Numbered from the stretch's first letter, positions 25,190-47,978 are shown. The stretch: 64,000 nt of DNA from Azolla caroliniana (GCA_043228905.1 JBHGNT010000010.1:4526001-4590000); one strand, 5' to 3'. Notes: generated from the letters alone by a model not told the origin. Program-made: numbers and translations.

Positions 25190-27592
25190 TGTTTCCTCGG
25201 GATCGAAGTGATCCGTACCCCCGAAGGCATATTGATCAGCCAACGCCATTATGTGTTGAGTATGCTCTTCAAATTCGGGATGGCCGACTGTAAGTCCGTC
25301 TCGACTCCTCTGGATAGAACTGTCAAGCTTCGCACCAATTCCGGAAAGGTATGTGACCCGACGATGTTCCGAAAAATTGTCAAAAGCCTTATCTACTTGA
25401 CAATCACCCGACCCGATCTCAGTTACCTAGTCGGGGTGATCAGTCAGTTCATGGCGCGACCTACCGAGGAGCACCTTCAGTGTGCGCAACGTGTACTGCG
25501 ATACGTTGTCGTGAAGAAAACCGTCCCTTAGCGCAATCGGTGCATAGCGCGCGTGAACCGGCTCTTCACGCGTGCGCGCCCTTAATGTATATAATAGGGG
25601 ATTAGGTACATAGGTATATCCTGGGTAGCTAGATTCGGTAGGTAGGAAGTAAATGAGGGAGACGGCTCCCTTCTGGATGCTATAAAGAAAAGGGAGACGC
25701 AGAGGAGAAGGGGATCGCGCGTTAAGGAGGACGAAGTGTTGTCGGACTGTAACCGAACGCTTCTCCTCTGTTTGTTCTCTATCACTCTTCTCTGCAGGTT
25801 TTCGGGAGGCTCGCGCTGCTTCGAGGAACGCTCGTGTGCTTCCGGCAGCACCTCCATCCTATCCCTTTTCGTGCACAGACGAACAGGCATCAACATCTGT
25901 TCGCCGGCCTAGTCGGTTGTAACCGCTCGCGCGCTCTGTTGTGTATTTGTTATTCGTTAATATACAAACTTTCGTGTCTCTCTGTCTCTGTGTCCATTCG
26001 CGTTCTCTGCGTTGACGGGCCGTGTCCCTGTGTTTCTTTGCTCATACGTAACCGGTCGTCTCTCTCTCTTTCTCTTTCCCCTCCTATCACCTGCTCTTCG
26101 GTTTAAGACCCCGGTGGTCCCGCCTCGTTTTCTCCATGCACGCGCGTAGCAACGCGACAACGTAAGCGGCACTAAGGATCGGGGACTGCTATATCAGACC
26201 GGTACAGCCTCGCAGTTGGTCGGCTACACCGATGTTGATTGGGCCGGCAACGCCGCCGATCGCCGATCCACGTCCGGATACACGTTCTCTCTTGGGAGTG
26301 CCGCGGTAGCGTGGTGCAATAAGAAGCAGCCAACAGTTGCACTGTCGAGCACCGAAGCCGAGTACCGAGGAGCGGCTGTCGCGACTTAAGGATCTGCAGG
26401 TAGAGGTGTTCGATCCAACAACGATCTATTGCGACAACCTCAACAACATCTAGCTCGCGAAGAACCCCGTTTTCCACGCACGGACCAAGCACATTAAGGT
26501 GCACTACCATTTCGTCCGTGAGCATGTCCTTTCTAGTGAAGTCGAACTTCAGCATGTTCCGACGGATCGGCAGACCGCCGACATCTTCACCAAACCTCTT
26601 GGACGGAACAAGTTGTGGCAATTCTCGGGTGCGCTTGGGTTGCGTCACCTTGACGTGCCGAACTTGAGGGTGAGAGATGTCCCGAATGACCACGAAAGGG
26701 GGAGAGAAGACCGTGACGCCGAGTCCGATGTCGAATTCGATTTCGGATCGGCTAAAGAAGCCGAGGGCGGACCCGCGGAAGAGCCGAAGCCAACCAAGTG
26801 TGGGCGAGACGAAGCCATTAAGGGAGAGAAGACCGAAGACGAGTTGGAGACAGCCAACTCGGACGAGAGCGAAAACCGATCGGAGGGAGCCGAGTCGGTT
26901 CGGATGTTTGATTCGGATACGTTGAATCAACCAAGGGCCAAGCGGAAAAGAAGGTAACAGGAGAAACGCCAACACCGCGACAACAAGGGAGCTGTGAAGG
27001 GTCGTGGGAGCAGACAAGTCGACCAGAAGGGTCAAAGCGCGCGGAGTCGAACAGGCCGAGGAGCGTAAGCGAGGCATGGAGCCAGGAGAAGCCGGAACGT
27101 AGATTCGGTGGAGCAAGCGGAACCTCAAGTTGAGCTTGAGGGGGAGTGTTGAGAGACAAGCTCAACATTTGTGCGTAATATGATGCGTAACCAGTGCGTA
27201 GATTGGGTGCGTAAAATCGGTACGCATAACATGGTCGTAGCGGTGCGTAAACCGCGAGGCCATTTGAAAGTTATTCCTCGTAAGGAATAGTTTTGGGAGT
27301 AAGTGTCGAGGCTCATTTATGAGCAGTCAAGCACTGCCAGCACTTGTGTCAGCCCATTGTTAGGGCTTGTATAAAAGGTGCTCACTAAGCACGATGTATG
27401 TACAGAGTTAGCATTTTTTAATTGAGTTCTCTGTGTTCTCTCTCTATCTCTCCCGCGTACTGTGTATACTCAAGCTCTCCATTAAACCTGCGTATTTTCT
27501 CTATGTTCGTTTTTCTATTGCCTTTGCACATAATCTTTCACAATCCTATCGCAACCAGGCGAGGATGGGCAGTCCCATCCAGTCGCGTATCA
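25190..27592 (+). mobile_element. 5'-truncated Ty1/Copia (RT end, RNase H, acidic 3' extension, PPT, 3' LTR 27147-27592)
   Basis: FLGIEV...LIYLTITRPDLSY...RVLRYVSGT, GYTDVDWAG, STEAEY, ADIFTKPL. PPT GAGGGGGAG is followed by TGTTGAG...GTATCA. Confidence 0.85.
25507..26159 (+). mobile_element. Solo LTR (653 bp) of the A/B/C Gypsy group, 4-bp TSD ACGT
   Basis: TGTCGTGAAGAAAACCGTCC...CAACGCGACA, with ACGT at 25503-25506 and 26160-26163. Removing it restores the Copia reading R-Y-V-S-G-T. Confidence 0.93.
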
Positions 27593-30500
27593 CTCGAGAA
27601 AATTTAATGTTGCGGAGATAAACTATGAGGTGCATGACAAGGAGTTACTAGACGTGGTTGACTCTTTCGAGCAATGGTGACATTTCTTAGAAAGATCGCC
27701 TCATCAGATCATCATTTATAGCGATCACAAAAATCTTACATATTTTTGAACAGCTCAAGTGTTAGATAGGCGACAAGCTCGGTGGGCCCAATTTCTAACT
27801 AATTTCGATTTCAAGATCATTTTTCGCCCTGGAAAACAATAAGGGAAAGCAAATGCTTTGTCTCGTCGTTCATATTTGGCACTTCGACCTAGAGATCCGG
27901 CCTTAGACTATCAAAAGTAGATTCTCCTCGGACCATCAAAGCTACAGACAACAACAGTTTATGCCACGCCACTTGATTCAAGCCTTCTTGATACTATTTG
28001 GCAACAATTTCACTCTGACGATTTAACTGAGGATGTCTTAGCCCACATTGGTTCAAGCCATGCATCTTGCTCCACATTGCAAGGGTCATCTAAACACTAT
28101 CAGGATTGCACGTGCCAAGATGACCTACTCTTCTACAAGAATCTCCTTTATGTCCTTGACGGATCACCTCGAGTTCAAGTGTTAGAACATTGTCATGATG
28201 CCCTATGGCTGGACATTTTGGTATTGCCAAGACCGTTGAGTTAGTCAAGTGTTCGTTTTCGTGGCCTCACTTACAAAAATTTGTCGAAGATTACGTTCAC
28301 ACATGTGACATTGTTGTCGCGCCAAAATACCCAGGCATCATCCTTATGGCTTGCTACAACCATTACCGCCTCCTAACAAGCCATGGCAATCTATTTCTAT
28401 GGATTTCATTACGGATTTGCCACCTTCCAGAGGCTTTGATACTATTTTAACAATAGTGGATCGATTTACCAAGATGGCGCATTTTTTGCCATATGTAAAG
28501 AGCACCAATAGTCAAGAAACCGCAAATTTCATTATGTGTGAAGTGTTTGCCATTATGGTCTTCCAAACGATATAATTAGCAATCGTGGTTCTCAATTTAT
28601 CTCTCACTTTTGGAAGCACATATGGGCAGGCCTCAAAATCTCTGCAAACTCTCTTCGGGTTATCATCCACAAATTGACAGACAAACAGAGTGCACAAATA
28701 CGCTCGAACAGTATCTTCGATGCTTCATCAGTTATTAACAAGATGATTAAAGTTTTCATACAACAACACGGTGTCGAGGTTTTCCTCGCGGATGAGTGGA
28801 ATGAGGCGGGACCTCGGGGGTCTTGTACCAAAGAGCAAGAGAGAAAGGAGAAGATGCCCACTACGTGCGAGAGTAGATCCACAGGGACACGACCCTTCGA
28901 CGCAAAGACGCAAGTGGGACAGCGACACAGAAAGACACGAATGTATGTATGTATTAACGAAGACAAACAACAAGAACACGAAGACAACAAAACACGAAGT
29001 CGGTTACAACCGAATAGGCCGGCGAACAGATGCCGATACCTGCTCGTAAACGCACAGAGAGGAAGGAGTAGGTTGGAGGTGCTGCCGGAAGCACTCGGGC
29101 ATTCCTCAGAGCAGCGCGAGCCTCCCGAAACCTGCACAGAAGGAAGCTATGGCGTTCGCGAACCAGTGAGAGAGAGAGAGAGAAGCCTTCGCCCGCAAAC
29201 CGACAACACTTCGTCCTCGACTCTCCGCGATCCTTCGCCCCTCCTCGTCGCCCTCCTTTTATAGGTAAGGAAGGAGCCGTTTCCCTACCTACCGAATCTA
29301 CCTGCCTAGGATCTTCTATGTACAACAAGAGGCGCATGTGCACGAAGAGCCGGTTCCTATGCTCCGGTGCACCGATTCCGCTTGTGGACGGTTTTCTTCA
29401 CGACATCCGCCCCCACCTAACCGCGGATCCACCGGCATGCGCCAAATTGTGTTGGGACGGAGAAAACCGGTTGCCCACGAGGAGATCGTACGTTCCATCG
29501 GCATGATCGGCATGTGCCCAAACATGAGCTTTGCCGGCATGAATTCGGTTACCGAACTGTGCGTAGTTCGGTCAGCCCACAACACGTAAGGCAGCAGTCG
29601 CGGCCAGTTTCCGACTTGACCTCCGCATGCCCGAACTAACGCCTTGACGATCGGTCCGTGTCCGCGCTCCACCTTTCCATTCGCCTCCGGATTGTACGCA
29701 GTGGTAAGCGAGAGCTTGACTCCTACCCGGTCGAACAGCTCCTCGGCCTCTTCGGCGTCCAACTCCCCGCGATCAGCCACGATCTTCCCGACGCACCCGT
29801 ACCGGCATATCACGTCCTCAATCAGGAACCGACATACGGCCGCAGTCGTTTTGTTCTGAAGGGCTCAGCCTTCCACCTAGTTCCTCAGATCTTCCCGAGC
29901 CAGGACCAGATACCGCATCTGTCCTACTCCCATCGGCATCGTCACCAGATCTACCATCCATTTGAAGTGGATGGTCGGAGGGTACGTAGGGTGAAGCTCG
30001 TCCCGATGTCGGACTACGGAGTGCATCTGGCAGCTCTCGCAAGTTGTCACGAACCGATGCACGTCCCGGTACAGTCCCGGCCACCAGTACTTCCCCTTTA
30101 TCTTCTCGAACGTGGCCCACGTTCCACGGTGTCCAGCCCAAGGGCTGTCGTAGTAGGCCGTCAACAGCTCCTCCTGTTCTCCCTTCATCGCCACCACCCG
30201 GAGCGGGACGCCGTTCCTCTTCTTCGGGTGCTTCCATAAGTATCCGTCCCGGAGAAAGCATCGGTAAGCTTTCTTCCGGATCCGGTTGGCCTCGTCCTTC
30301 GTCCATGACGCATCCGGCGTCATTGTCCTCAGAAACCCACCGATCTGCAGCCACTCGCCGTCTTACTTGCTCTCGTCGAAGCCGTTAAGTGCCGGAGTGC
30401 TTGCCCCATCGGTCGTCACGTACGCCGCCTCGAAGAAGTCCACGCCGACTTCTTCGTCCTCCGAAACCATGCCGCCCTCGTCATCAAACCTCGCCCTCGA

Positions 30501-33500
30501 AAGCATGTCGGCCATGGCGTTGTCTTTTCCGGAAATGTGTCGTATTTCCAGGTCCAGGGACTTGATGTACGCTATCCACCTGAGCATAGCCAGGTCCGGT
30601 GTCGCGCATCCGGAAACCATGCCGAGAATCGGCAGGCAATCCGTCTTGATAACCACTTCTGTCCCGATCAGGTAGTCTTTGTCGGCCTTTACTGCCGAAA
30701 CGATACCCCAGAGTTCGCGTTTAACCTGGGCGTACCCTCGCTGTCGTTCACTGAGGACCTTAGCGCCGAATCGGATCGGGAACCGGGTGCCGTCCCCGTC
30801 TTCTTGGTTGACGACCCATCCGATCCCGGTCGGACTCGTATCCACCATTATGTATACCGGGGTACCCTTCTCGTAGACAGCCTTCCGGAGCGCCGAGGCT
30901 GCCGCAAGAGCTTCCTTCAGCTTCCGGACCGACTCCGTGTGCTCGTCTCGCCACTCGAATTTTCGCCCTTTCTTCAGCAACCCGTATAGCGGCTCCGCAA
31001 CGTGGGCGTAATGAGGGATCCATATGTGGTAGAACGCACATGCCCCCAGGAACCTCCGAACTTACGTAACCGAGCTACAATCGGTCTTCATCGCGGAGAT
31101 GGCTTCTACCTTTGCCGGAGACGGCTTCCGGCCATAAGGTCCACATAGGTGTCCGACCACCAGGATTTCTGATTGCCCGAAGGCCGATTTCTCCCCGGAG
31201 AAGGTGAGCCTCGCATCCTCTAGCCTTTGTAGCACCTTCTCGCAGTCGTCGATGTGTGTCGCCACGAATCGCCGGCATCCGTCCGGCCCGACTGTCTCGT
31301 CCTTCTCCTCCATCGGGCACCCCTTGATCGGGATGTCGTCTACAAACGGCATGGTGATGTCTGGGATGCAATCCCTTAGTACCTTGTTCATTGCATTCAC
31401 CATGTGGGCCACCGTGTTGGTCCCTCCTTGTGGCAGGGTACACATTCGCACTAGGCTGAGGGGAGTTCGCATCGTCGTAATATCTCTGCTCTCCACGGCT
31501 AGCTGGAACTGGTCGTACCCCGAGTACAGATCACCGACCGAGTAAATTGACCTTCCGGCGAAGGCCTCCGCGAACTCGTCTATGGTCGGTCCGATTCCTG
31601 TGTTCCGAATGGTCACTCTGTTGACCGGCTGCAGGTCTTGAATGAAGCGCATCGTTCCGTTTTTCTTTGGTACGGTAAACCATCGGTTCGAGTATGGGGC
31701 ACTCGACGGTTCGAGAATGCCCATATCTACTTTCTGCCTCAATAGCTCCATCAACTTCGGGATGTGAGCTCTTGGTACCGGAATCGGCTTGAGATTCCAC
31801 GGTTCATGCGGTACCGTGAATATCACCATCGGCTCCACGATCGTCGGGTCTACGCACCTGATCTCTTCCGGTGAGAATGCGAAGGCTTTCCCGTGCCTTC
31901 CGAGCATTCTCTGAAACCGGTCTTCCTCCGCCGGCAGTAGGAACCCGCCCCCACCGATCTTGAGCTCCCGGAGCGTCCTATCGGTGAAGGTGTGTCCTAT
32001 GCAGGCCGGATCTCGTAAACTGGGGTCCGACGCCACCCCTCTGATTCGGGACTCGCTGCCCTCCGGTAAGGGTGCCGCGACCGGCCTTACCTTCCGGTCC
32101 ACAGTCTTGTACTTCGTGCTAACTCGGGCCATCCGATCCGACTCGAGCCCTTGACTGAAGTCCGCGATGACTTCGTACATCTCTTCGGAACATACCGGTA
32201 TCGTCCGGTCTTCGTTAAGGTCTTCTCCGACTACCTTCCTCAGCATTCCCAAGGTGTCGTCGAAGGAGACCGCCTCCACGGCTCCGCTGATTTCCTCGTC
32301 CGGGCCGAGAACTCCGCACGCTCGAAGTCCCTCCTCCGCCCTTGCCCTTTCTCGGCCAACGATGCCGACTATCATACATCCTCCGTCGTCCGAGAAGCAA
32401 AATTTCCTGCCTATTGTACAAGGTTTCTTCGGTTTCGGTTCTATTGTACAACATGGGGTCTTTCCCGAGTGTCCAGACTGTCTCGGCCCCACGCCTTGGC
32501 AGCCCTCTCTAAAAATCCTCTCGGTTCTCGCCACCGAGGGATTTGCGGTTCCGCTCGTGGTTCGGCCGCACCGTCAGAAATTGGACCGAATGGCACCCGT
32601 CTTGGCTTTTGACCCTCGCGTAGGCCGACCCGTTGTCCAACACTTTGGTCTCCATCCGCGCCGCCGTGATGTATGGTTCACCTAATATGACCGGGTGCGA
32701 GGACGTCTCCTGTACGAAGAAGTGTTGGTCAATCTCGACGTCGCCGATCTTGACTCGCACGTTCGGGCAGGCCCCATGCAGTTCCTCGGTGGCACGCGTC
32801 GCCGCCCGTATCTTCCACCCGTGCTTGGTGTTGATCGGCCACTTCCCCTTCTTATAGAAGTCCATGGACATCAGCTTTATTTTCGAATCGTGGTCCACCA
32901 GTGCCACCACCGGTTCCTGAACCTCTCCGATCTTTACCGGGGTCTCCGTGGTCGCTCGGGCCCAGTGTGGCCTCCAATAGTGGCTCTCCGCCCACTCATC
33001 TGCCAGCGCCGAGTCGTCGATGTGTGTCGTCCGCACCTCTACCGGTCTTTCCGGATCTGTCTCCGTCGACAGCCTCTTCCGTTTCACCAAGTCTACAATG
33101 GAGTCGTGGAACTCCTTCTTGGCGATCCCTAACACCTCTCGCAATGATAGCTCCACTTTGCTGTCGAGGATCCGTTTTTCTAGGACCTTTCGTAGGTCCG
33201 TAGTCCTTTCTATCTCCGTCCCCAGTCGGTATCCGCCCTGCCTGGGGTTATCTTGCGAGCTGGACCCGTCGGCATCGTTCCGTCGTTGCCCGAATCGGGT
33301 CTCGTATCGTTGTGAGGGCCCGGCCGCTCCGGCTTTCCCCACTCGCTTGTCTTCTACCAGAGCCTCGTAGTTCCGGCAGGCGGCTTCTACGAAGCCCGTC
33401 TTCTCCTCGACCGGATCGCTCCACCCGGTTATTTCCCGGACCCGTCTCTCAGCGCGGTGTCGCGTTGTTACGCGCGTGCGTGGAGAAGGGCGGAACCACG

Positions 33501-34123
33501 GGGGTCTCGGACTAAGGAGAAGGGGAGAAGGAATAGGACTTCGGAATGGAGCTTAGCACAAGAAGAGGAAGAATGAACAAGAGGAAGATAGAGGCCAAAC
33601 GCTCAACAAGATATATTAGAAACGAAAACCGATTACAAAATGGCGGCCGCGTAGGTCGCACCGAACGACTATGATAAACCCGAAACCCTAATCCGACGAA
33701 GAAGAAAAGAAACCCTAAACGAAACCCTAACCCTAAAACGAAATGGTATACCTCACTCACACTCAAAAATAAGGCAACCCCCACAATGGTGCTCTTCCTC
33801 TCCCTTTATAGCACAAGGAGAGAAGACCGTTTACAAAAAGGGTGCTACCAAATATCCCCTTTCAATCAATGGGGATATTTCCCTTGATTTTAGGGGAGGT
33901 GGGAAGGATGGGTCTTAACTCCCACCTCTACACGAACTACTATGTACCTATCTCTCTCTCTCTCTCACGTGGATGTGCGCGCAAAAGCACATCACCTTTA
34001 CACTTTACAAATCCTAAGGTGCATTTCTAGCACCATACTTATCACTATCGATAAATAGAAATACAACATGGTGATGTGCAACGTTGCACATCGCGGGTTT
34101 GCTTGCTTCGCTCGGGTTTCCGC

Positions 34124-37100
34124 CTATGGACGAAAATCTTCACGACATCCGCCCCCACCTAACCGCACATCCACCGGTATGTGCCAAAAGGGGACAAAAC
34201 GCGAGATTTTCGGCCAAGGCGGCCAACCGAGCCCTTGACAACCTCGTGGGCTTGCCCGGCTTTGTCTTCCACTTCGAGCAAGTCCACCCCGTCCACACGA
34301 ACCACCGTCGCCTTCCGGCCCACCATCTCCACCGAATGGTCTCGAACCGTCGGCTCCATCCGATCCGCCACACTTGACAACGTTCGCCGAGTCGTTGCCT
34401 CCACCCGATCCGCCACGTCCATCGTGATTCTTTGAACCACCGTCTGCATCCGGACCGCCGTTTCCGATGCCCGCGCCTTCTTCCCCGATCGGTCCTCCCG
34501 AACGCCGTTGCCGACCCGGTTGCTCTTCTTTTGTCCGCCTCGTATAGCCTCCGGATGCTCTCCCGATCTCTCCGGTTGCACGCCGGATTCCGCCTTTCCC
34601 GTGCTTGCCGTGCTCTCTCGCCGTAGAGCATACCATCGTTCCCGTGCTCGTTGCTTGGCCCTCATGCGGCCGCATTGCACGTTTCGCATTCCGCTCCTCT
34701 TCGCGTACCCTTTCGGAAAGGTACCTTTCTTCCCCGACCTCCGTTTCGCTCGGAGGAACACCCTCTTGGCCCTCTTGGTCCGCTCGACCGCACACATCCT
34801 TCGTGATGTCGTGTTCGTTCTTTTGGGCGCATACATCTTCGTTCTCCGCGACCTCCCGTATGCCTCTCTCGGTGCCTTCATCCGTTGTGGCCTTCGTCCC
34901 CTCGCCGCCACCGTCCGCCACTCTTGGTCTCACGTCGGCACTCGCGCCGACCGCCGGAGTCTCTATAGCCGGTGTGGAGGATCCCTCTCGGGCCTTATCT
35001 TCGTGGCCGCCGGTCTTAGCCTCTCCGTAGGCCACCTCTTCCCACCAATCTTCCCTAGCATCGTGCCAGGTCTTGTCGTCGTCGCCTTCCTCCTCGTATT
35101 CGCCTCTCGAAGGCGTGATCCGACCGTCATCTTCGGTCGCTCGATGTGGCTCCTTCGTAGGCATGCTTGTGTCTTGGCCCTCCATCGGCCATATTGCATG
35201 CATCTCGTCTCGCTCTTCCGCCGTAGATCCGACCTCCGTGTCGGTCTTCTCCTCCTTTGTCGCCGTAGCCCGTTCCGACACGGGCTCGCCGTCTTGGACC
35301 CACCCGTCCACCATCTCGTACCGGATATCCGTTCCGGTAACCTCGTACGCTCCGGCCTCCGACTCCTCGCCGCTACCCGCCGTCTCTCCGGTCTTATGTT
35401 GATCCGCAACCGCCGTAGTCTCTAGAGTGGATATGGAGGGTCTCGTTTGTTTCCGTTTTCCCCCCGAACCATGGTCGTCGTGCCCGGTTAGCCTCCATCT
35501 CGCGCTTACCGGCTCCCATCGCAACCGTAACCGTAACCGTAACCGGCCAATCGGTCTTGCCGGCTTCCTTCGGTTTGGGCCCGGTTCGCCGGCCCTTACT
35601 CTCTTCTTCTTCCGTGCCGTATTCCGGTCGGGTCGGTTCCCGACTCTCTCCTCGTTTCCGCTCCGGTCCTCTCCGTCGGACCCACCGTATACGCCCATTC
35701 CGGGCCCCGCATACTCGTCTTCGTATGCGCTCTCTCCGGGCCTCACCTCCTCACGGTCACCGCCCATCTCTCCGGTCTCACGTTGGCATTCGAGCACAAC
35801 CGCCGAAGTCTCCGGCCCCGGTGTCAAGGGGTCTTGCCTCCGTCTGCTCCAATCTTCCTTCTCGTTTCCGTTGCCTGCCTTGCCGCCGTCACCTCCCGTC
35901 GCACTAAGCCTCATGCCGGCACTCGGGCCGGCCATTGGAGCCTCTAGGATTGGTGTGGGTAAGGTCCCGGCACCACCGCTTGTTGTCTCCGTAGCCGCTT
36001 TCGTTCGGACGTCGTCGTCCGCAGCTCCCCCATCTCCGATTCCGTAAGCCTCTAGTATGCTTGCCACCACCTCTTCTTCGCCGTTCTCCGCGTCATTTTG
36101 TTTGCCCGCCTTGCCGCCGCCACCGCCCGTCGTTCTAGGTCTCGTGCCGGCACTCGGGCCGACCGCCGAAGCCTCTAGGGCCGGTGTGTGGAAGGTCGCG
36201 GCACCACCGCTCGCCTCCTCTCCGCTCGATGTTTTGGGCCGCCGTGCCCCGAATCTTCCGCCCACTTTCGAAGTGGCGCTCTCCGCTTTGTAGTCACCGG
36301 CCTCATCCTTGGCCGTCCATTCGCCGCAAGACGAGAGGGTTGCTCGCTCCGCACCCTCTCCCATGTCGTCGTCGTTTCGGTTGCCCGCCTTGCCGCCGCC
36401 ACCGTCCGTCACTCTAGGCCTCTCGCCGGCTCTCGGGCCGGGTGCCGGAGTCTCTAGGACCGGTGTGTGGAAGGTCACGACACCACCACTCCTCTCGTCC
36501 GTAGCCACCTCCATTCGGACATCGTCGTCCGTGGCTACCCCGTCTTCGGTTTCGCAAGCATCGAGTATGCTTGCCGCCGCCTCTTCTTCGCCGGTCTCGT
36601 CCTCATCTCGGTTGTCCACCTTGCCGCCGCCACCGTCCGTAGCTCTAGGTCTCGTGCCGGCACTCGGGCCGACCGCCGAAGCCTCTAGGGCCGGTGTGTG
36701 GAAGGTCGCGACACCATCGCTCGTTTCATCTTCCTCCTCCATTTCGCAAGCCTCGAGTATGCTCGCGAAATCCTCGTAGAACGTTTCGGGCAATCGCGTC
36801 CCGAAACTTCCGCCCACTCTCGAAGTGGCGTCCATCGCTCCGTAGATATCGGCCTCGTCCATGGCCGTTCTTTTTCCCCGAGATGAGACGGTCGCTTCCT
36901 CCGCACCTTCTCTCGTGTCGACGCCGTGGTCGCCCGCCTTGCCACCGCCACCGCCTTTCACCATAGGTCTTACGCGGGCACTCGGGCCGGCCGCCGTGAT
37001 CTCTAGCAATGACGCGTGTAAGGTCGCGGGACCGCCGCTCGTCGATGTAATGTCCGTAGCCACCTCCGCTCGGACGTCGCTGTCCGTGGCTACCCCGCCT

Positions 37101-38320
37101 CCGTATATGCAAGCATCGGTTATGCTTGCCGCCGCCTCTTCCGCGGTCTCCTTACCGTTGTCTCGGTTGGCCGCCTTGCCGCCGCCACCGTTCTTCTCCC
37201 TCGGTCTCTCGCGGGCGCTCGGGCCGGCCGCCGTGGTCTCTCGAACCGGTGCGTGGAAGGTTGCGGTACCGCCGCTTGTCTCCTCCGTACTCGATGATTC
37301 GGGCCACCGTGTCCCGAATCCGCCATGTCCGCTCGAATCGGCGATCGCCGCCTCACCATCCCCGACCTCGTCCTCGGTCGTTCTTTTCCCCCATGTCGAG
37401 AGGGCGGTTCGCTCCGCACCCTCTCCCGTGGTACCGATGTACCATTCTCTTTCGGCCTCCGCATAGGCCCCGTCCTCCATGTGTGAGGAAGCTCCTTCCT
37501 CCGCGTCCTCCGATCCGCTCGGGCCCGACCCCGCAATAAGCCATTCTTCGGCTTCGATTTTCGTCATTACGAGCCCGCACGCCTCCCGTATTAGCGCTTG
37601 TAGGTCGAGCCCCTCCAAACCGGTTCGCGATGAGCTCTCGTCCGGCGGCATGGCGTAGTTGGTCGTCGCTCTCTCTTCTCCCCCGCTCGCGGGCCGTGTT
37701 GTGGCCGACCGCCTCGCCTCATGTTGCCGACAGACCCATTCCACTTCGGGCCACTCCTCGGTGAGACCATGCGCCCCATAATCGTCTTGAAGCTCGAACG
37801 TGATGTCCATCCTCTCCTCATGATGGACCGTCTCCAAAAATAGGAGGACTTTGTCCGCCCCCACCGATCTTCGTTCCCACTCCGAGAGTTGAGAGAAACG
37901 ACGCTCGAACTCTCGGAATGCCTCTATTGCGCTCCGATGGCGCCTCGCCGACGCCATCCACCGATCGAACTCTCGCCGACCTCTTACCTCCGATTCCGCG
38001 CACCCGTATGCCTCCATTAGAGCCCCTTCAAAGGACTCCCACGATTCGTGAGCTTCTTGGAGCTCCTTGACCTCCTCGTACTTTGATGCGGCCGCCGCTC
38101 GACGAAAGAACTCTAGCCTCGTCGCTTCGTCCACGCCCATCCCCGTCATTTCCGCATCGTAGGCTCTCAAAAATTTTGGGACCTCCTTCCCATCGAACCG
38201 GCCGACTAGACGGACCACCCTTTCGACCGCTTGTTGAGCCGCCTCTCGCCTCGCCCTCTTCCGTCCGGCGTCCATCAAGATCTTTGTCATCATCTCCTCG
38301 AAGCCGAAGCCTTCTTCCAT
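34124..38320 (-). CDS. 1398-aa protein: divergent Gag capsid-like N-terminus (~200 aa) plus long acidic Gly/Ala/Glu/Thr-rich repetitive tail
   Basis: Uninterrupted ATG ORF starting 20 nt after the PBS. The N-terminus aligns by eye to element A Gag (GRFDGK/GRFSGK, WESFEG/WEEFEG, REFERRF/REFEERF, KVLLFL/RVLLFV, GLTEEW/GLTTNW). The stop lies inside the 3' LTR. Confidence 0.85.
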   Translation of the reverse strand: MEEGFGFEEMMTKILMDAGRKRARREAAQQAVERVVRLVGRFDGKEVPKFLRAYDAEMTGMGVDEATRLEFFRRAAAASKYEEVKELQEAHESWESFEGALMEAYGCAESEVRGRREFDRWMASARRHRSAIEAFREFERRFSQLSEWERRSVGADKVLLFLETVHHEERMDITFELQDDYGAHGLTEEWPEVEWVCRQHEARRSATTRPASGGEERATTNYAMPPDESSSRTGLEGLDLQALIREACGLVMTKIEAEEWLIAGSGPSGSEDAEEGASSHMEDGAYAEAEREWYIGTTGEGAERTALSTWGKRTTEDEVGDGEAAIADSSGHGGFGTRWPESSSTEETSGGTATFHAPVRETTAAGPSARERPREKNGGGGKAANRDNGKETAEEAAASITDACIYGGGVATDSDVRAEVATDITSTSGGPATLHASLLEITAAGPSARVRPMVKGGGGGKAGDHGVDTREGAEEATVSSRGKRTAMDEADIYGAMDATSRVGGSFGTRLPETFYEDFASILEACEMEEEDETSDGVATFHTPALEASAVGPSAGTRPRATDGGGGKVDNRDEDETGEEEAAASILDACETEDGVATDDDVRMEVATDERSGGVVTFHTPVLETPAPGPRAGERPRVTDGGGGKAGNRNDDDMGEGAERATLSSCGEWTAKDEAGDYKAESATSKVGGRFGARRPKTSSGEEASGGAATFHTPALEASAVGPSAGTRPRTTGGGGGKAGKQNDAENGEEEVVASILEAYGIGDGGAADDDVRTKAATETTSGGAGTLPTPILEAPMAGPSAGMRLSATGGDGGKAGNGNEKEDWSRRRQDPLTPGPETSAVVLECQRETGEMGGDREEVRPGESAYEDEYAGPGMGVYGGSDGEDRSGNEERVGNRPDRNTARKKKRVRAGEPGPNRRKPARPIGRLRLRLRLRWEPVSARWRLTGHDDHGSGGKRKQTRPSISTLETTAVADQHKTGETAGSGEESEAGAYEVTGTDIRYEMVDGWVQDGEPVSERATATKEEKTDTEVGSTAEERDEMHAIWPMEGQDTSMPTKEPHRATEDDGRITPSRGEYEEEGDDDKTWHDAREDWWEEVAYGEAKTGGHEDKAREGSSTPAIETPAVGASADVRPRVADGGGEGTKATTDEGTERGIREVAENEDVCAQKNEHDITKDVCGRADQEGQEGVPPSETEVGEERYLSERVREEERNAKRAMRPHEGQATSTGTMVCSTAREHGKHGKGGIRRATGEIGRASGGYTRRTKEEQPGRQRRSGGPIGEEGAGIGNGGPDADGGSKNHDGRGGSGGGNDSANVVKCGGSDGADGSRPFGGDGGPEGDGGSCGRGGLARSGRQSRASPRGCQGLGWPPWPKISRFVPFWHIPVDVRLGGGGCREDFRP

Positions 38321-38340
38321 CTCTTTCTCCCTTGCCGCCC

Positions 38341-38358
38341 TTCACGTCGGGTTCACCA
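38341..38358 (-). promoter_or_regulatory. Primer binding site complementary to the plant tRNA-Trp 3' end (also 40183-40200; partial at 46256-46269)
   Basis: Plus strand TTCACGTCGGGTTCACCA matches the 3' 18 nt of plant cytosolic tRNA-Trp(CCA) as recalled; it sits 3-4 nt from each 5' LTR. Confidence 0.85.
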
Positions 38359-40841
38359 AGGATGTCGCGTTGTTACGCGCGTGCGTGGAGAAGGGCGGAA
38401 CCACGGGGGTCTCGGACTAAGGAGAAGGGGAGAAGGAATAGGACTTCGGAATGGAGCTTAGCACAAGAAGAGGAAGAATGAACAAGAGGAAGATAGAGGC
38501 CAAACGCTCAACAAGATATATTAGAAACGAAAACCGATTACAAAATGGCGGCCGCGTAGGTCGCACCGAACGACTATGATAAACCCGAAACCCTAATCCG
38601 ACGAAGAAGAAAAGAAACCCTAAACGAAACCCTAACCCTAAAACGAAATGGTATACCTCACTCACACTCAAAAATAAGGCAACCCCCACAATGGTGCTCT
38701 TCCTCTCCCTTTATAGCACAAGGAGAGAAGACCGTTTACAAAAAGGGTGCTACCAAATATCCCCTTTCAATCAATGGGGATATTTCCCTTGATTTTAGGG
38801 GAGGTGGGAAGGATGGGTCTTAACTCCCACCTCTACACGAACTACTATGTACCTATCTCTCTCTCTCTCTCACGTGGATGTGCGCGCAAAAGCACATCAC
38901 CTTTACACTTTACAAATCCTAAGGTGCATTTCTAGCACCATACTTATCACTATCGATAAATAGAAATACAACATGGTGATGTGCAACGTTGCACATCGCG
39001 GGTTTGCTTGCTTCGCTCGGGTTTCCGCCTATGGACGAAAATCTTCACGACAGCGGTCCGTTTCATCTTTCCTTAGCCGTGTGCCGCCAAGACCTTCCAG
39101 CATTGCCGCCCAGAATCCGTCTTTGCCCTCCTTTCGGGCCTCGCTGCACCCGACCCGAATGCCGGCCAACGCCGAGTAGTGGATGGCTTCCACGTGTCGG
39201 GCCGCTGCCTCTTCCATCAGTCTCTTCATACCTCCTCGTCCGTCGTTTCGGTTCAGGGCCCTCCTGGTGTCGCCGGCGTGCACCCGGCCTTCCCACAGGT
39301 ACACCACATGTTCCCTGCTGCCGGCCGTCGGTCACGAACCGGTTCGTTGCCTTCCCTTCGAGTCTGGGCGATCTGGAGATCCTTTATCACCCGCGTCAAT
39401 TCCTCCAGCGCTGCTCCTCCGGACGAGCCACTGACCATGCCGGTCGAAGCCGGACCGGTCCCGAGCCATTCCCGGGTCTCTTCCCTTCGCACTTGCGGTG
39501 CCGGTTCAAGCCTCCTTGCTGTGACAGAGCCCGCACCTCCCGCCCCGTTGTCAGCCCATTCTCGCCGTTTATCGAAACAGCCACAGACTCTCTTAACTGC
39601 GGCCCAGTTGGTTGTCAGCCCGTCCTCGGTTTCCAACAAGGAGCCGACTTGGTCCCGGTCCCGCTCGTCCACCGACTTGACGAACAGTAGGACCCGGCTC
39701 GTATCCAGAACGGTTCGGTCAAGCGCCGAAAGGCGCGCAAAGCGTTCTTCGAACTCCCGGAGGAGTGTCGTCGCGTTTCTTCCCTTGCCGGGGAACTCCA
39801 CCCATTCCATGAAGTCCCTTTTCGAAAGCCGGAGCGTGTCGTCCAGCCCGTATTTTTCTAGGAGTCGGCCTTCGAACTCCTCCCAGGTACGGCTCTCCGC
39901 CCGCACCTCGAGCACCTCCACATGGATGCTCGGCATCGCCACTCGAGGAAACCTGGCAAGACGCCTCTCTTCCGGAATGTCCCGCATCAGCATTTCTGCC
40001 CGTAGGACGCCAAATACTTCGTGGCATCCTTTCCGCTGAACCGGCCGATCGTACCGACGACCGCCTCAATGGCTCTGTCGAGGGCGCCGGTGCCCTCGCG
40101 TGCACTCAATATCCAATCTACGGCCGAAGCCATGGCTTCTGCAAGATCCGACCCTTTCATCTTCTGCTCTTCTGCCGCCTCCTTCACGTCGGGTTCACCA
40201 AGATGTCGAGGTTTTCCTCGCGGATGCGTGGAATGAGGCGGGACCTCGGGGGTCCTGTACCAAAGAGCAAGAGAGAAAGGAGAAGATGCCCACTACGTGC
40301 GAGCGTAGATCCACAGGGACACGGCCCTTCGACGCAAAGACGCAAGTGGGAAAGCGACACAGAAAGACACGAATGTATGTATGTATTAACGAAGACAAAC
40401 AACAAGAACACGAAGACAACAAAACACGAAGTCGGTTACAACCGAACAGGCCGACTAACAGATGCCGATACCTGCTCGTAAACGCACAGAGAGGAAGGAG
40501 TAGGTTGGAGGTGCTGCCGGAAGCACTCGGGCATTCCTCAGAGCAGCGCGAGCCTCCCGAAACCTGCACAGAAGGAAGCTATGGCGTTCGCGAACCAGAG
40601 AGAGAGAGAGAGAGAAGCCTTCGCCCGCAAACCGACAACACTTCGTCCTCGACTCTCCGCGATCCTTCGCCCCTCCTCGTCGCCCTCCTTTTATAAGTAA
40701 GGAAGGAGCCGTTTCCCTACCTACCGAATCTACCTACCTAGGATCTTCTATGTACAACAAGAGGCGCATGTGCACGAAGAGCCGGTTCCTACGCTCCGGT
40801 GCACCGATTCCGCTTGTGGACGGTTTTCTTCACGACAATGG

Positions 40842-43800
40842 TGTCGTGGTATTCCTCGCGGATGCGTGGAATGAGGCAGGACCTCGGGGGTCTTGTACCG
40901 AAGGGCAAGAGAGAAAGGAGAAGGGAGGGGACCCACTACGTGCGAGCGTAGATTCACAGGGACACGGCCCTTCGACATAAAGACGTGAGTGCGACCCCGA
41001 CACAGAGAGACACGAATGTACGTAAATATATATATTAACAAGACAAACGACAAGAAGCACGAAGTCGGTTACAACCGAACAGGCCGGTGAACAGATGCCG
41101 ATGCCTGTTCGTAAACGCACAGAAAGAAAAGAGTAGGTTGGAGGTGCTGCCGGAAGCACTCGGGCATTCCTCAGAGCAGCGCGAGCCTCCCGAAACCTGC
41201 ACAAAAAGAAGCCACGGAGCTTGGGGGGAGAGAGAGAGAAGCCTTCGCCCACAAACCGACAACACTTCGTCCTCTTCTATTCGCGATTCCCTTTTCCCCT
41301 CCTCGTCTCCCTCCTCTTATAGGCAAGGAAGGAGCTGTTTCCCATTAACTTCCTACCTACCGAATCTACCTACCTAGGATCTTCTATGTACCTAATTCTC
41401 TCTTATGTACAATATAAGGCGTACGTGCATGAAGAGCCGGTTCCTACACTCCGGTGTACCGATTCTGCTTGTGGACGGTTTTCTTCACGACATCCGCCCC
41501 CACCTAACCGCGCATCCTCCGGCATGCGCCAAATTGAGTCGGGACGGAGAAAACCGGTCCAGCCTTCATTCCTCGCCCGTCGGTTCTTCCTCGGTTTCGG
41601 ATCGTTCGTCGTCGTGGTCCAGGTTAACCGGATCCGGCTCGTCGTCGTGACGCTTTTTGAACGCTTTGATCCGCTTCCCAGCTACCGGTATCGCCATTCT
41701 CGTGCCGTCGAGTTCCGCCAGATGGTATGTCCCGTTGTCGTTGGCGCTTTGTACCACGTAAGGTCCGAACCACATTCTCGCGAACTTTCGTGTCGCTCGG
41801 TGCTGGTTGTCGAGACTGTTGTCGTAGACTAGCACCCAGTCGCCTTCCTCGATCTTCTTCGGTCGGAGACGGTGCGTTCGGTCGAACCGGGCTTTGTTCC
41901 TCGTCCTTGCCACCCGAAGCTCTCTCGCGGCCTGCTCCACGTCCTCCGGTCTTCGCTCGAGCTGTCGTATGCGCGCCGCCAACAGTTCCTCCCAGCTCAT
42001 CTCGTCACTCCAGTCCACGGTTGCCCATGACGAGATCGTACGTTCCATCGGCATGATCGGCTTCTGCCCAAACATGAGCTCTGCCCGGCATGAATCCGGT
42101 TACCGAACTGTGCGTAGTTCGGTCTGCCCACAACGCGTAAGGCAGCAGCCGCGGCCAGTTCTCGACTTGACCCCCGCATGCCCGAACTAACGCCTTGACG
42201 ATCAGTCCGTGTCCGCGCTCCACCTTCCCATTCGCCTCTGGATTGTACGCAGTGGTAAGCGAGAGCTTGACTCCTAGCCGGTCGAACAGCTCCTCGGCCT
42301 CTTCGGCGTCCAACTCCCCGCGATCAGCCACGATCTTCCCGACGCACCCGTACCGGCATATCACGTCCTCGATCAGGAACCGACATACGGCCGCGGTCGT
42401 TTTGTTCTGAAGGGCTCAGCCTTCCACCTAGTTCCTCAGATCTTCCCGAGCCAGGACCAGATACCGCATCTGTCCTACTCCCATCGGCATCGTCACCAGA
42501 TCTACCATCCATTTGAAGTGCATGGTCGGAGGGTACGTAGGGTGAAGCTCGTCCCGATGTCGGACTACGGAGTGCATCTGGCAGCTCTCGCAAGTTGTCA
42601 CGAACCGATGCACGTCCCGGTACAGTCCCGGCCACCAGTACTTCCCCTTTATCTTCTCGAATGTGGCCCACGTTCCACCTTGTCCAGCCCAAGGGCTGTC
42701 GTGGTAGGCCGTCAGCAGCTCCTCCTGTTCTTCCTTCATCGCCACTACCCGGAGCGGGGCGCCGTTCCTCTTCTTCAGGTGCTTCCATAAGTATCCGTCC
42801 CGGAGAAAGAATCGGTAAGCTTTCTTCCGGATCCGGTTTGCCTCGTCCCTCGTCCATGACGCATCCGGCGTCATTGTCTTCAAGAAACCACCGATCTGTA
42901 GCCACTCGCTGTCGTACTTGCTCTCGTCGAAGCCGTTAAGTGCCGGAGTGCCCGTCCCATCGGTCGTCACGTACGCCGCCTCGAAGAAGTCCACGCCGAC
43001 TTCTTCGTCCTCCGAAACCATGCCGCCCTCGTCATCAAACCTCGCCCTCGAAAGCATGTCGGCCATGGCGTTGTCCTTTCCGGAAATGTGTCGTATTTCC
43101 GGGTCTAGGGACTTGATGTACGCTATCCACTTGAGCATCGCCAGGTCCGGTGTCGCGCACCCGGAAACCATGCCGAGAATCGGCAGGCAATCCGTCTCGA
43201 TAATCACTTCCGTCCCGATCAGGTAGTCTTTGTCGGCCTTTACTGCCGAAACGATACCCCAGAGTTCGCGTTTAACCTGGGCGTACCCTCGTTGTCGCTC
43301 ACTGAGGACCTTCGCGTCGAATCGGATCGGGAACCGAACGCCGTCCTCGTGTTCTTGGTTGACGACCCATCCGATCCCGGTCGGACTCGTATCCACCGTT
43401 ATGTATACCGGGGTACCCTTCTCGTAGACAGCCTTCCGGAGCGCCGGTGCTGCCGAAAGAGCTCCCTGCAGCTTCCGGACCGACTCCGTGTGCTCGTCTC
43501 GCCACTCGAATTTTAGCCCCTTCTTCAGCAACCCGTATAGCGGCTCCGCAACGTGGGCGTAATGCGGGATCCATATGTGGTAGAATGCGCATGCCCCCAG
43601 GAACCTTCGAACTTCCGTAACCGAGCTACAGTCAGTCTTCATCGCGGAGATGGCTTTTACTTTTGCCGGAGACGGCTTCCGGCCATACGGTCCACATAGG
43701 TGTCCGACCACTAGGATTTCTGATTGCCCGAAGGCCGATTTCTCCCCGGAGAAGGTGAGCCTCGCATCCTCTAGCCTTTGTAGCACCTTCTCGCAGTCGT

Positions 43801-46800
43801 CGATGTGTGTTGATACGAATCGCCGTCATCCGTCCTGCCCGAGTGTCTCATCCTTCTCTTGCACCAGGCACCCCTTGATCGGGATGTCGTCTAGAAACGG
43901 CATGGTGATGTCCGGGATGCAATCCCTCAGTACCTTGTTCATTGCATTCACCATTTGGGCCACCGAGTTGGTCCCTCCTTATGACAGGGTACACATTCAC
44001 ACTAGGCCGAGGGGAGTTCGCATCGTCGTAATGTCTCTGCTCTCCACGGCTAGCTGGAACTGGTCGTACCCCGAGTACAGATCACCGACCGAGTAAATCG
44101 ACCTTCCGGCGAAGGCCTCCGTGAACTCGTCTATGGTCGGTCCGATTCCTGCGTTCCGGAAGGTCAATGTTCCGTTTTTCTTCGGTACGGTAAACCATGG
44201 GTTCGAGTATGGGGCACTTGACGGTTCGAGAATGGCCATATCGACTTTCTGCCTCAATAGTTCCATCAACTTCGGGATGTGAGCTCTCGGTACTGGAATC
44301 GGCTTGAGATTCCACGATACATGCAGTACCGTGAATATCACCATCGGCTCCACGATTGTCGGCTCGAGCTCTTGACTGAAGTTCGCGATGACTTCGTACA
44401 CCTCTTGGGAACATACCGGTATCGTCCGGTCTTCGATAAGGTCTTCCCCGGCTACCTTCCTCAGCATTCCCAAGGTGTCATCGAAGGAGACCGCCTCTAC
44501 GGCTCCGCTGATTTCCTCGTCCGGGCCGAGAACTCCGCACGCTCGAAGTCGCTCCTCCGCCCTTGCCCTTTCTCGGCCAGCGATGCCGACTATCATACAC
44601 CCTCCGTCGTTGGAGAAGCAAAATTTTCTACCTATCGTACAAGGATTCTTCGGTTTCGGTTCTATCGTACAGCTGTGGGGTCTTTCCCGAGTGTCCGGAC
44701 TGTCTCGGCCCCACGCCTCGGCAGCCCTTTCTAAAAATCCTCCCGGTTCTCGCCATCGAGGTATTCGTAGTTTCGCTCGTAGTTCGTCCGCACCGTCAGA
44801 AATTGGACCGAATGGCGCCCGTCCTGGCTTTTGACCCTCGCGTAGGCCGAACCATTGTCCAGCACTTTGGTCTCCATTCTCGCCGCCGTGATGTATGGTT
44901 CCCCTAAAATGACCAGATGCGAGGACGTCTCCTGTACGAAGAAGTGCTGGTCAATCTCGACGTCGCCGATCTTGACTCGCACATTCGGGCAGGCCCCGTG
45001 CAGTTCCTCTGTGGCGCGTGTCGCCGCCCGTATCTTCCACCCGTGCTTGGTGTTGATCGGCCATTTTCCCTTCTTATAGAAGTCCATGGACATCAGGTTT
45101 ATTTCCGAACCGTGGTCCACCAGTGCTACCACCGGTTCTTGAACATCTCCGATCTTTACCGGGGTCTCTGTGGTCGCTCGGGCCCAGTGTGGCCTCGAAT
45201 AGTGGCTCTCCGCCCACCCATCTTCCACCGCTAAGTTGTCGATGTGCGTCGTCCGCACCTCCACCAGTCTTTCCGGTTCCGTCTCCGTCGACAGCCTCTT
45301 CCGTTTCACCAAGTCTACAATGGAGTCGTGGAACTCCTTGGCGATCCCTAGCACCTCCCGCAATGATAGCTCCACTTTGCTGTCGAGGATCCGTTCTTCT
45401 AGGACCTTTCATAGGTCCGTGGTCCTTTCTATTTCCGTCCCCAGTCGGTATTCACCCTTCCTGGGGTTATCTTGCGAGTTGGACCCACCGACATCGTTCC
45501 GTCGTTGCCCGAATCGGGTCTCGTACTGTTGTGAGGGCCCGGGCGCTCCGGCTTTCCCCACTCATTTGTCTTCTACCAGAGCCTCGTAGTTCCGGCAGGC
45601 GGCTCCTACGAAGCCCGTCTTCTCCTCGACCGGGTCACTCTACCCGGTTACTTCCCGGACCCGTCTCTCAACGCGGTCCGCTTCATCTTTCCTCAACCGT
45701 GCGCCGGCGAGGCCTTCTAGCATTGCCGACCAGAATCCGTCTTTGCTCTCCTCTCGGGCCTCGCTGCCTCCGACCCGAATGCCGGCCGACGCCGAGTAGT
45801 GGATGGCCTCCACGTGTCGGGCCGCTGCCTCTTCTATCAGTTTCTTCATCCCTCCTCGCCCGTCGTTTCGGTTTAGGGCCCTTCTGGTGTCGCCGGCGTG
45901 CACCCGGCCTTCCCACAGGTACACCACCCGGTTCCTCAACGCCTCTGCGAAGTCGCCGCAGTCCTTCCGAATGTGGCCGACCTCGTCGCACCACATGCAC
46001 CTGTTCCCTGCTGCCGGCCGTTGGTCACGAGCCGGTTCGCCGCCTTCCCTTCGATTCTGGGCGATCTGGAGATCCTTTATCGCCCACGTCAACTCCTCCA
46101 GCGCTGCTCCTCCGGACGAGCCATTGACCATGCCGGTCGAAGCCGGACCGGTTTCGAGCCATTCCCGGGTTTCTTCCCTTCGCCCTTGCGGTGCCGGTTC
46201 AAGCCTCCTTGCTGTGACAGAGCCCGCACCGGCCACCCCGTTGTCAGCCCATTCTCGTCGGGTTCACCAAGATGTCGTGGTATTCCTCGCGGATGCGTGG
46301 AATGAGGCGGGACCTCGGGGGTCTTGTACCGAAGGGCAAGAGAGAAAGGAGAAGGGAGGGGACCCACTACGTGCGAGCGTAGATTCACAGGGACACGGCC
46401 CTTCGACACAAAGACGCGAGTGCGACCCCGACACAGAGAGACACGAATGTATGTAAATATATATATTAACAAGACAAACGACAAGAAGCACGAAGTCGGT
46501 TACAACCGAACAGGCCGGCGAACAGATGCCGATGCCTGTTCGTAAACGCACAGAAAGAAAAGAGTAGGTTGGAGGTGCTGCCGGAAGCACTCGGGCATTC
46601 CTCAGAGCAGCGCGAGCCTCCTGAAACCTGCACAGAAAGAAGCCACGGAGCTTCGGGGGAGAGAGAGAGAAGCCTTCGCCCACAAACCGACAGCACTTCG
46701 TCCTCTTCTATTCGCGATTCCCTTTTCCCCTCCTCGTCTCCCTCCTCTTATAGGCAAGGAAGGAGTCGTTTCCCATTAACTTCCTACCTACCGAATCTAC

Positions 46801-46923
46801 CTACCTAGGATCTTCTATGTACCTAATTCTCTCTTATGTACAATATAAGGCGTACGTGCATGAAGAGCCGGTTCCTACGCTCCGGTGTACCGATTCTGCT
46901 TGTGGACGGTTTTCTTCACGACA
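40842..46923 (-). mobile_element. Gypsy element C (sister of A), defective
   Basis: 651-bp LTRs at 40842-41492 and 46273-46923 (about a dozen differences). Gag zinc knuckle CMWCDEVGHIRKDC, PR ALVDHGSEINLM, RT FLDD, RH, INT with WFGPY. Gag N-terminus deleted. Confidence 0.95.
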
Positions 46924-47978
46924 ACGGTACACTCTTCTACCAAAGTTACACCTTTCTTTGCCTACACTGACAACCACCTTCGATGGTGTATCCTGGATCT
47001 TCCCGGGATGTCACAAAACCCTAGTATGACGCATCACCTCCACCAACTACAACAAATCCAGTTCGAGTTATCGTCACATCTTTAGAGGGCTCAAGCACAC
47101 CATAAGACCAATGCAAATCAACATCGCCTTAAGTCTCCTTTTAAGGTTGGTGACCGAGTATGGTTGCTTCGTCGTCACATCAATAGTACCCGATCATGTG
47201 CTAAGCTCAATTTTCAACGTTTAGGTCCTTTTGCCATCACAACGCAGATTAATGATGCAACATTTCGTCTTAACCTTCCTGCACACATGCGACTTCACCC
47301 AATCTTTCATAGCTCTCTTTTGGAGCCATGCCGCACCTTTTTAATTCCTAATCGTGTTGTGCCCCCTCCGCCTTCTGTCCAACTTGTTGATGGCCCCGAA
47401 TACGATGTAGCTACTATTTTTTATTCTAAGATTGTGCGCAATAAGCTCTATTATCTAGTTGATTGGCTTGGTTATCCTCTGAATGATCGCACTCGGGAAC
47501 CTGTCGATAACATTTGTAATGCTCAAGCTCTTGTCGACGACTTCCATTGCCACTATCCAGACAAACCTGGCCCAACAATGTTAACGCTAACTTCCACTCG
47601 TCGTTCTCAAAGGAGGGATAGTGTCACGAACACATGACCATTATGGCATTGTCATGATGTTTTCATACCACGATGAGAAAATAACCTCAACCAAATTATA
47701 TGAACTGATTCAAAACTTTGTAAATGGTTGTTTAGCTAAGAGATAACTAATAACTTGATAAGAACATTCGCCATAGGATGATAATAGCTAGTTGAATCTG
47801 CGATAAAACATAATATCGAGTAGAATAGTTTAAAGCGAAATACCTATTATTAACACACTTGTTATTATCACTATTAGGTATTTTAACTATAAATCTATTA
47901 AAGCTATTACCCACTTTTAAAGCTAAATACCTATTATCAACACACTTGTTATTATCACTATCAACTATTTTAGCTATT

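Follow-up and report, generated by a model that had tools for sequence, protein, structure and literature searches.

The stretch of DNA analysed here, referred to as the window, comprises 64,000 nucleotides from Azolla caroliniana (GCA_043228905.1 JBHGNT010000010.1:4526001-4590000) and contains a retrotransposon without enzyme genes, element B (positions 33458-39052, minus strand, 5595 bp), which is nested in a Ty3/gypsy element (A) adjacent to a further member of the family of A (C). Judged from sequence comparison, B is a recently copied, multi-copy element whose single open reading frame (ORF) appears to be kept open by selection across its family. The predicted protein begins with what is modelled as a two-lobed capsid of the Arc/Ty3 type and continues in a very long tail, the frame of which seems to be conserved while its amino-acid sequence is apparently not under purifying selection. 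The reading that we tentatively favour, giving it a little less than an even chance, is that B is an enzyme-less satellite whose ORF product acts as a tether bringing its own RNA into the particles of a helper element.

The original prediction, made from the sequence alone, had described B as an element with identical long terminal repeats (LTRs), without pol, and with the same primer-binding site (PBS), polypurine tract (PPT) and att ends as A and C but a largely unrelated LTR body. This description was borne out. The two 690-bp LTRs do not differ from each other, the PBS and PPT of A and C recur in B, and the similarity of the LTRs to those of A and C is restricted to their ends. No Pfam family was found on the ORF, and tblastn within the window revealed no pol-like match except a weak one of low complexity (23%). 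The PBS is presumably of the tRNA-Trp type, given the 3' end of plant tRNA-Trp and the Phygy entry of a lineage survey (PMC6317226). In the 5' LTR, the sequence at LTR position 338 (38710-38715) is taken to be a TATA-like box, and those at LTR positions 419, 431 and 458 to be telo-box-like motifs. The number of ATG triplets in the presumed leader is zero, compared with a mean of 4.8 in shuffled sequences (P(0)=0.007). Further, a contig of one run joins B LTR positions ~37 and ~380 (window 33768-34111), other runs show an alternative sequence beside 34115, and the related contig L001, which carries an open 1419-aa form of the ORF, begins at LTR position 380. Because of these observations, U3 may have been exchanged between subfamilies.

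Depth of coverage was compared in four DNA runs representing three samples. The median depth of unique flanking DNA on long contigs was 10.7, 16.2, 15.8 and 58, and that of near-identical contigs inside B was 429-571, 985-1555, 331-475 and 1912-2094, which corresponds to ratios of 40-53, 61-96, 21-30 and 33-36. Depth does not translate directly into copy number, and the values of runs X2 and X8, which come from one sample, differ twofold; these ratios therefore suggest only that B is present in tens of near-identical copies, roughly 20-100 per genome. In runs X3 and X18, which were selected for containing B and may represent RNA, contigs spanned most of B and the neighbouring bins of A were low, but these two runs were given no weight. 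A second insertion site of the family was found on contig L002 (914 aa of ORF, cut at the 5' end). The depth ratios and this second site dispose of a single-copy rearrangement, which had been named beforehand as one of the results that would refute the prediction.

The frame of the B ORF contains no stop codon; the other five frames contain 36, 27, 27, 18 and 27. In dinucleotide shuffles of the tail (2000 global, 2000 local) the minimum was 16 stops (global) and 14 (local), so that GC richness alone, the other reservation attached to the original prediction, does not explain the open frame. Repeat pairs inside the window ORF were in phase in 15 of 15 cases, with gaps that are a multiple of three in 7 of 7. 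When all 35 repeat alignments among the window and L002 were considered, 33 starts and 35 ends were in phase. The two longest of these repeat alignments contain 324 differences, for which about 8.7 stops would be expected and none was seen. The ratio of nonsynonymous to synonymous substitution rates (dN/dS) was 0.86 for window versus L001 (1239 codons), 0.93-1.35 for window versus L002, and 1.08 and 0.95 between tail repeats; over the five larger comparisons with the window it ranged from 0.86 to 1.35. B clearly illustrates how an ORF of kilobase scale can be kept open without amino-acid constraint. The analysis of ORF integrity and dN/dS across copies that had been proposed at the outset thus gave a divided answer: the long relatives are open, but dN/dS of the tail is close to 1, and broken or shortened members exist (P0017, 484 aa; P0034, 659 aa; P0002, 880 aa). 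The end absent from P0002 appears as P0015 on a contig of equal size.

These data bear on the view that the ORF has no function, i.e. that a recent burst amplified a master copy whose frame was open by chance, and that its RNA is moved purely via its cis ends. A dN/dS near 1 and the broken copies agree with this view, as does the report that Ty1 and Ty3 need just terminal sequences in cis (PMC4974528). However, it leaves the in-phase duplications, the in-frame insertions and deletions, the missing stops and the ATG-free leader without explanation, as well as the fact that frames are open in several subfamilies that have diverged and differ in length. We consider it largely refuted already and very improbable. 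Antisense ORFs in B were rejected as genes (18-27 stops per frame, no consistent dN/dS signal). Likewise rejected as a hidden gene was the third frame ('VEMVGRK...'), which has no match elsewhere in the window and is interrupted by a stop in L001 and L002.

The copy in the window is damaged. Comparison with both L001 and L002 revealed that it lacks 142 nt at ~34605 and 1 nt at ~34194. The 4.2-kb ORF that had been called intact is uninterrupted over 1398 aa but not intact relative to the family. Because of the 142-nt deletion, residues ~1241-1398 are read in a frame other than that of the family, and the ORF extends into the 3' LTR; in L001 and L002 it stops at the PPT, 12 nt before this LTR. 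The longer form at 34194 accounted for a depth of 480/527, 860/948, 383/429 and 2248/2789 in the four DNA runs, and the junction of the 142-nt deletion was crossed by no contig piece among the matches listed. Probably, the window copy is a damaged daughter that either arose during the last copying round or was carried in trans. A stop-removing change after the frameshift was rejected, as the stop in question lies in the third frame.

With respect to the tail, the ~1200 aa of acidic low-complexity sequence described initially were confirmed as an acidic repeat spacer but not as uniformly acidic, since two stretches of the family protein have a positive net charge, namely aa 901-1000 with +10 and aa 1201-1400 with +10 and +28. 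The model of the family member P0005, obtained with a shallow alignment, is devoid of secondary structure in almost the entire stretch of residues 187-886, where the predicted local distance difference test score (pLDDT) is <50; this is consistent with a disordered tail. The last 110 aa of family protein P0003 include 27 Arg and 13 Trp. The motif W-x-x-S-K-W was found in frame with Gag in 13 of 20 proteins of at least 480 aa, with lengths of 618-1419 aa and identities down to 46%; these 13 proteins represent about six sequence types, and five of them are the same 1419-aa form from different contigs. TGG triplets occur 11 times in frame versus once and not at all in the other frames, and in three of six scored comparisons all Trp residues were retained (11/11, 10/10 and 6/6). 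Protein P0004 (1518 aa) has an in-frame internal duplication of ~650 residues, which is either real or an assembly artefact.

Selection might also act on translation through to the PPT and not on the protein, such that the passage of ribosomes would stabilise the RNA (by a short 3' untranslated region (UTR) and escape from nonsense-mediated decay) or couple it to packaging, and the tail peptide would be incidental. A frame that is kept at dN/dS of about 1, a family stop very close to the 3' LTR, and a frameshift in the window copy that still reads into the LTR are in line with this explanation, and reporter studies found that decay is set off by 3' UTRs that are long (PMC6173133). Some transcriptome-wide studies covered by the same source, moss SMG1 included, found little or no trend with long 3' UTRs. 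Moreover, it would remain unexplained why an internal region of 3-4 kb is kept and expanded, why the capsid C-lobe is retained, and why the Trp motif stands in frame in lineages that are 46-56% identical. On balance, we regard selection on translation alone as unlikely.

The N-terminus of the B protein is 34-35% identical to the Gag of A and has no CCHC knuckle. The AlphaFold prediction suggested in advance for this part, here run as AlphaFold2 on aa 1-220 with a 78-sequence alignment, gave a two-lobed capsid fold with pLDDT 90.7. VIA-align placed model residues 33-107 on the Arc N-lobe and 111-207 on the Arc and PEG10 C-lobes. The top 18 rows were all capsid or capsid-derived; the best Z (10.1) was obtained with dArc1 (root mean square deviation (rmsd) 8.8, 158 aligned), single lobes were superimposed with rmsd 1.9-3.1, and Drt2 matched the C-lobe with rmsd 3.2 over 85 aligned residues. 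Foldseek with the same model gave nothing at E<=0.001, with Arc, Copia and Ty3 heading the list, and Atlas matches at 0.86-0.89 are leads only. The initial view of the first ~200 aa as a diverged capsid without knuckle was correct in kind but too short in extent, because Gag homology actually reaches ~aa 260. At the sequence level, weak Gag matches in Pfam were obtained only with a family alignment, a PDB sequence search gave nothing below E 0.2, and no relative was found among viral contigs. Named relatives of the Gag are from one liverwort and two ferns. From the sequence data, the host would be a non-seed plant, possibly a moss.

Among 257 relative proteins, 145 were B-like, and 39 of these extend at least 100 aa beyond the capsid; a CCHC or protease motif was present in none of the 39. 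A capsid tree was calculated from 45 of the 78 alignment rows, the 33 with <140 capsid residues being left out. In this tree, in which several B-type rows are fragments labelled by similarity alone, B-type capsids were separated from knuckle- or protease-bearing Gags, A included, with support of 100/99. The substitution spectrum of the C-lobe was mildly conservative (z 2.0-2.8 in 5 of 12 comparisons) and that of the tail neutral. Two further proteins, P0216 and P0221, likewise combine a Gag that lacks the knuckle with a long acidic tail but fall on another branch of the capsid tree, which possibly reflects a second origin of the same layout. By eye, P0121 has an N-lobe like that of P0127 and P0206 on the helper-side branch and a B-type C-lobe, and is possibly a recombinant.

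In one subfamily the N-lobe (aa ~27-110) is deleted in frame (nine proteins by pattern, plus P0063), and the first ~26 residues are joined straight to the C-lobe. Of these, P0005 (893 aa) and P0006 and P0014 (1188 aa each) are open through to the Arg/Trp end, and the helices of the C-lobe are still predicted in the long N-lobe-less proteins. This subfamily is likely a mobile element, too. A capsid of its own, as originally inferred for the satellite, is not needed by this subfamily; the comparison drawn with Ty1 p22, in turn, gained some support from it. The roles in condensates, particle size and anti-silencing that had been suggested for the tail found no support in these data.

Two other explanations are affected by the N-lobe-less form. 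Above all in this form, the protein might act as a C-lobe competitor in the manner of Ty1 p22/p18 or Drt2, which enters helper assembly, lowers helper replication and frees or redirects Pol. The removal of the whole N-lobe in frame with retention of the C-lobe in about 10 proteins, the presence of Drt2 among the structural matches (Z 6.8), and C-lobe-only restriction as established in yeast (PMC10951436, PMC8458377) speak for competition. Yet a satellite gains little from blocking enzymes that it needs, the A family is still far more abundant than B in contig depth, the capsid of B is only ~34% identical to that of A, and the conserved far C-terminus is left unexplained; we judge such a competitor to be quite unlikely. 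Alternatively, B might be a classical semi-autonomous TR-GAG element whose protein builds its own particles around B RNA and recruits helper Gag-Pol, the tail being cleaved off or filling the particle. Both lobes are present in the main subfamily and are confidently folded in the model, and the capsid forms its own well-supported clade. In contrast, long ORFs are open in the N-lobe-less subfamily although its proteins presumably could not close a capsid, it is difficult to accommodate 1200 tail residues on each subunit, and the N-lobe shows no clear constraint. We regard particles of B's own as improbable.

The tether is the simplest account because the frame is open through an unconstrained spacer to the basic end and because the C-lobe persists when the N-lobe is lost. 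According to this model, (i) B RNA would be translated into a capsid-tail protein; (ii) the Arg/Trp-rich end would take over from the lost knuckle and bind B's own RNA; (iii) the C-lobe would dock on the Gag/Gag-Pol lattice of an autonomous relative; (iv) the acidic spacer would serve as a passive flexible link, like a much enlarged version of the capsid-spacer-nucleocapsid arrangement of Ty3; (v) helper reverse transcriptase (RT) and integrase would use the PBS, PPT and att ends that the elements have in common and copy the RNA into NCGN sites. The Gag of Ty1 lacks a knuckle and uses clusters of basic residues to bind RNA, and in Ty3 the capsid is followed by an acidic spacer and then by the basic nucleocapsid (PMC4974528). 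Of the original interpretation, a multi-copy, recently mobile Gag-only satellite with a real capsid and a selected ORF is upheld, whereas an intact copy is not.

Several points weigh against a tether. The window copy lacks an in-frame basic end, and yet its LTRs are identical, which argues against a strict need for this end in cis unless the deletion arose in the last copying. The motif is absent from 7 of the 20 long proteins (P0001, P0002, P0004, P0017, P0034, P0232 and P0063), two of which are on short contigs, and Trp retention was lower in the other three comparisons (9/11, 9/10 and 5/6). For L001 versus L002, dN/dS of the Trp region was 1.03 on just 23 differences. The Trp motif could instead be a signal at the nucleotide level, given that codon periodicity in this region is offset from that of the remaining tail and that these ~180 codons are also open in a second frame. 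The N-lobe had no clear conservative signature (z -0.4 to 1.7). In addition, the relatives are short-read contigs in which repeat copies may be merged, searches for long ORFs favour open frames, and the distant relatives are known from protein sequence.

A more far-reaching version of the tether, which we put forward as possible but doubtful, is that an old satellite lineage of non-seed plants made Gag an RNA-delivery adaptor in which 350-1100 acidic spacer residues, free to evolve, connect a C-lobe hook with an Arg/Trp clamp for RNA derived from 3' read-through. One branch without N-lobe would be a mobile, selfish counterpart of Ty1 p18, and a similar layout may have arisen twice (P0216/P0221). 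If the tether is true, it would represent a route for a parasite into a foreign capsid and link selfish satellites to capsid-fragment restriction factors. The reason why Gag-only retrotransposons keep Gag was stated to be open in PMC4350172. Since the B family is a natural deletion series (two-lobe versus C-lobe-only, spacers of very different length, basic end present or absent), this question becomes testable by counting copies in one genome.

B resembles TR-GAG elements as they are described in PMC4350172, PMC8704663 and PMC13570524 in having LTRs, PBS, PPT, a target-site duplication (TSD) and a single Gag ORF without pol, and in being multi-copy and recently active; an identifiable autonomous twin is not required for this class (PMC4350172). 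It differs in size (5595 bp, as opposed to generally <4 kb; PMC4350172), in its TSD of 4 bp instead of 5 bp, and in an ORF of up to 1419 aa in the family, compared with 562 aa in an Arabidopsis example. Moreover, the B family has no zinc knuckle, a frame-conserved repeat spacer, the Arg/Trp end and an N-lobe-less subfamily. Because of its size and TSD, B was not filed as a standard member; it works like TR-GAG and is best described as a novel variant of Gag-only (TR-GAG-like) elements. With the Phygy lineage B shares the 4-bp NCGN TSD, and its Gag is related to liverwort and fern proteins; its PBS is putatively of the tRNA-Trp type, too. Phygy elements, described from Physcomitrella patens, are 7.7-10 kb long and encode a full polyprotein (PMC6317226), whereas B has no pol and is considered a Phygy derivative and not a standard member. 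The likeness to Ty1 p22/p18 and Drt2, a capsid C-lobe without N-lobe (PMC8458377, PMC10951436), applies to the sister subfamily only and not to the window copy. The yeast proteins inhibit transposition and arise from an internal transcript or a domesticated locus, whereas in the sister subfamily the C-lobe is joined to a tail of 700-1000 aa in a likely mobile element. HeT-A of Drosophila encodes a Gag, relies on the reverse transcriptase of another element and interacts with the Gag of that element, but it is a telomere-specific non-LTR element with an unrelated Gag, i.e. a functional analogue only (PMC2173066). No description of a Phygy-type satellite or of a Gag with such a tail was found in the open literature, as judged by titles and the beginnings of abstracts.

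Table 1. Coordinates of element B, its parts and the two related elements in the window
Feature	Position	Strand	Remarks
5' LTR of B	38363..39052	-	690 bp
3' LTR of B	33458..34147	-	0 differences from 5' LTR over 690 positions
TSD of B, left copy	33454..33457	+	4 bp, NCGN type; empty site seen in element C
TSD of B, right copy	39053..39056	+	4 bp
PBS of B	38341..38358	-	common to A and C; identical sequence in A, B and C
PPT of B	34148..34160	-	common to A and C
Presumed leader of B	38321..38687	-	367 nt, ATG-free; transcription start placed by the TATA-like box
Single ORF of B	34124..38320	-	1398 aa in window copy; 1419 aa in L001
Capsid N-lobe (modelled), aa ~43-107	38000..38194	-	Arc N-lobe Z 8.9, rmsd 1.9, 69 aligned; Ty3 N-terminal domain Z 6.5
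Capsid C-lobe (modelled), aa ~111-207	37700..37990	-	Arc C-lobe Z 8.5, rmsd 3.1, 81 aligned; PEG10 C-terminal domain Z 8.1; Drt2 Z 6.8
Post-capsid helix, aa ~238-262	37535..37609	-	position of helix ~35-40 residues before zinc knuckle in autonomous relatives; no knuckle here
Acidic Gly/Ala/Thr/Glu repeat spacer	35861..37430	-	diverged in-phase duplications, 70-84% identical; further unit at 34903-34976
Junction of 142-nt deletion	34600..34610	-	short direct repeat at its ends; frame shifted
Arg/Trp-rich C-terminus in relatives	34195..34604	-	Gly-rich peptide in another frame in window copy
1-nt deletion relative to most copies	34190..34198	-	alters last residues only
Host element A, Phygy-type Ty3/gypsy	28772..40837	-	LTRs differ at 12/634; gag and pol disrupted; lacks the end of integrase
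Neighbour C, same family as A	40842..46923	-	LTRs differ at 12/651; gag without its capsid part but with CCHC knuckle; partial deletion of RT

Four-bp NCGN sites were found at all five junction sets, i.e. those of B, A and C, that of a solo LTR, and the single flank of L002. In the Phygy lineage, NCGN TSDs of 4 bp (100%) and a tRNA-Trp PBS (81%) were reported (PMC6317226). By TSD, putative PBS type and Gag relatives, B, A and C are provisionally assigned to Phygy-type non-chromovirus Ty3/gypsy elements. B had been placed inside the gag gene of A; it does lie in the gag-pol frame of A, the exact site being between the knuckle region and the protease motif that follows it. Both A and C are defective copies, so that any helper would have to be a different copy or family. 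The share of positions occupied by CG dinucleotides is 9.5-9.9% in A and C versus 2-3% in the flanks (3-5 times denser), and the A family is very abundant in contig depth, so that insertion of B into A is expected by chance. The emphasis originally placed on insertion into its own helper family is therefore not warranted, and helper-specific targeting of A is not needed. Patches of same-family elements are known in moss (PMC7466625, PMC11899658).

Element C passes from the PBS straight to the end of the capsid region and keeps the knuckle and most of pol, which makes it the mirror image of B. A and C are arranged head to tail, 4 bp apart (28768-28771, 40838-40841, 46924-46927); the outer 4-mers are equal, and a single base distinguishes them from the middle one. 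This looks as though one of the two elements had inserted at the target duplication of the other. The solo LTR (25507-26159, plus strand) is flanked by a 4-bp NCGN TSD. Because its U5 end looks closer to that of B than do those of A or C, its subfamily may be nearer to the parent or helper of B.

Elsewhere in the window, a Copia-type element (12894-18293, minus strand) is a very recent insertion: its LTRs are identical, its TSD is 5 bp long, and its polyprotein of 1358 aa (gag, integrase and RT domains) is not interrupted. The region at 26160-28770 is a repeat of very high depth that is weakly similar to 54404-54784 and contains a 301-aa ORF (26172-27077, minus strand) without Pfam match. Finally, a partial cytochrome P450 ORF lies in a GC-rich patch (5042-6154, plus strand), and a MULE/FAR1-type transposase ORF is located at 48754-49812 (plus strand).

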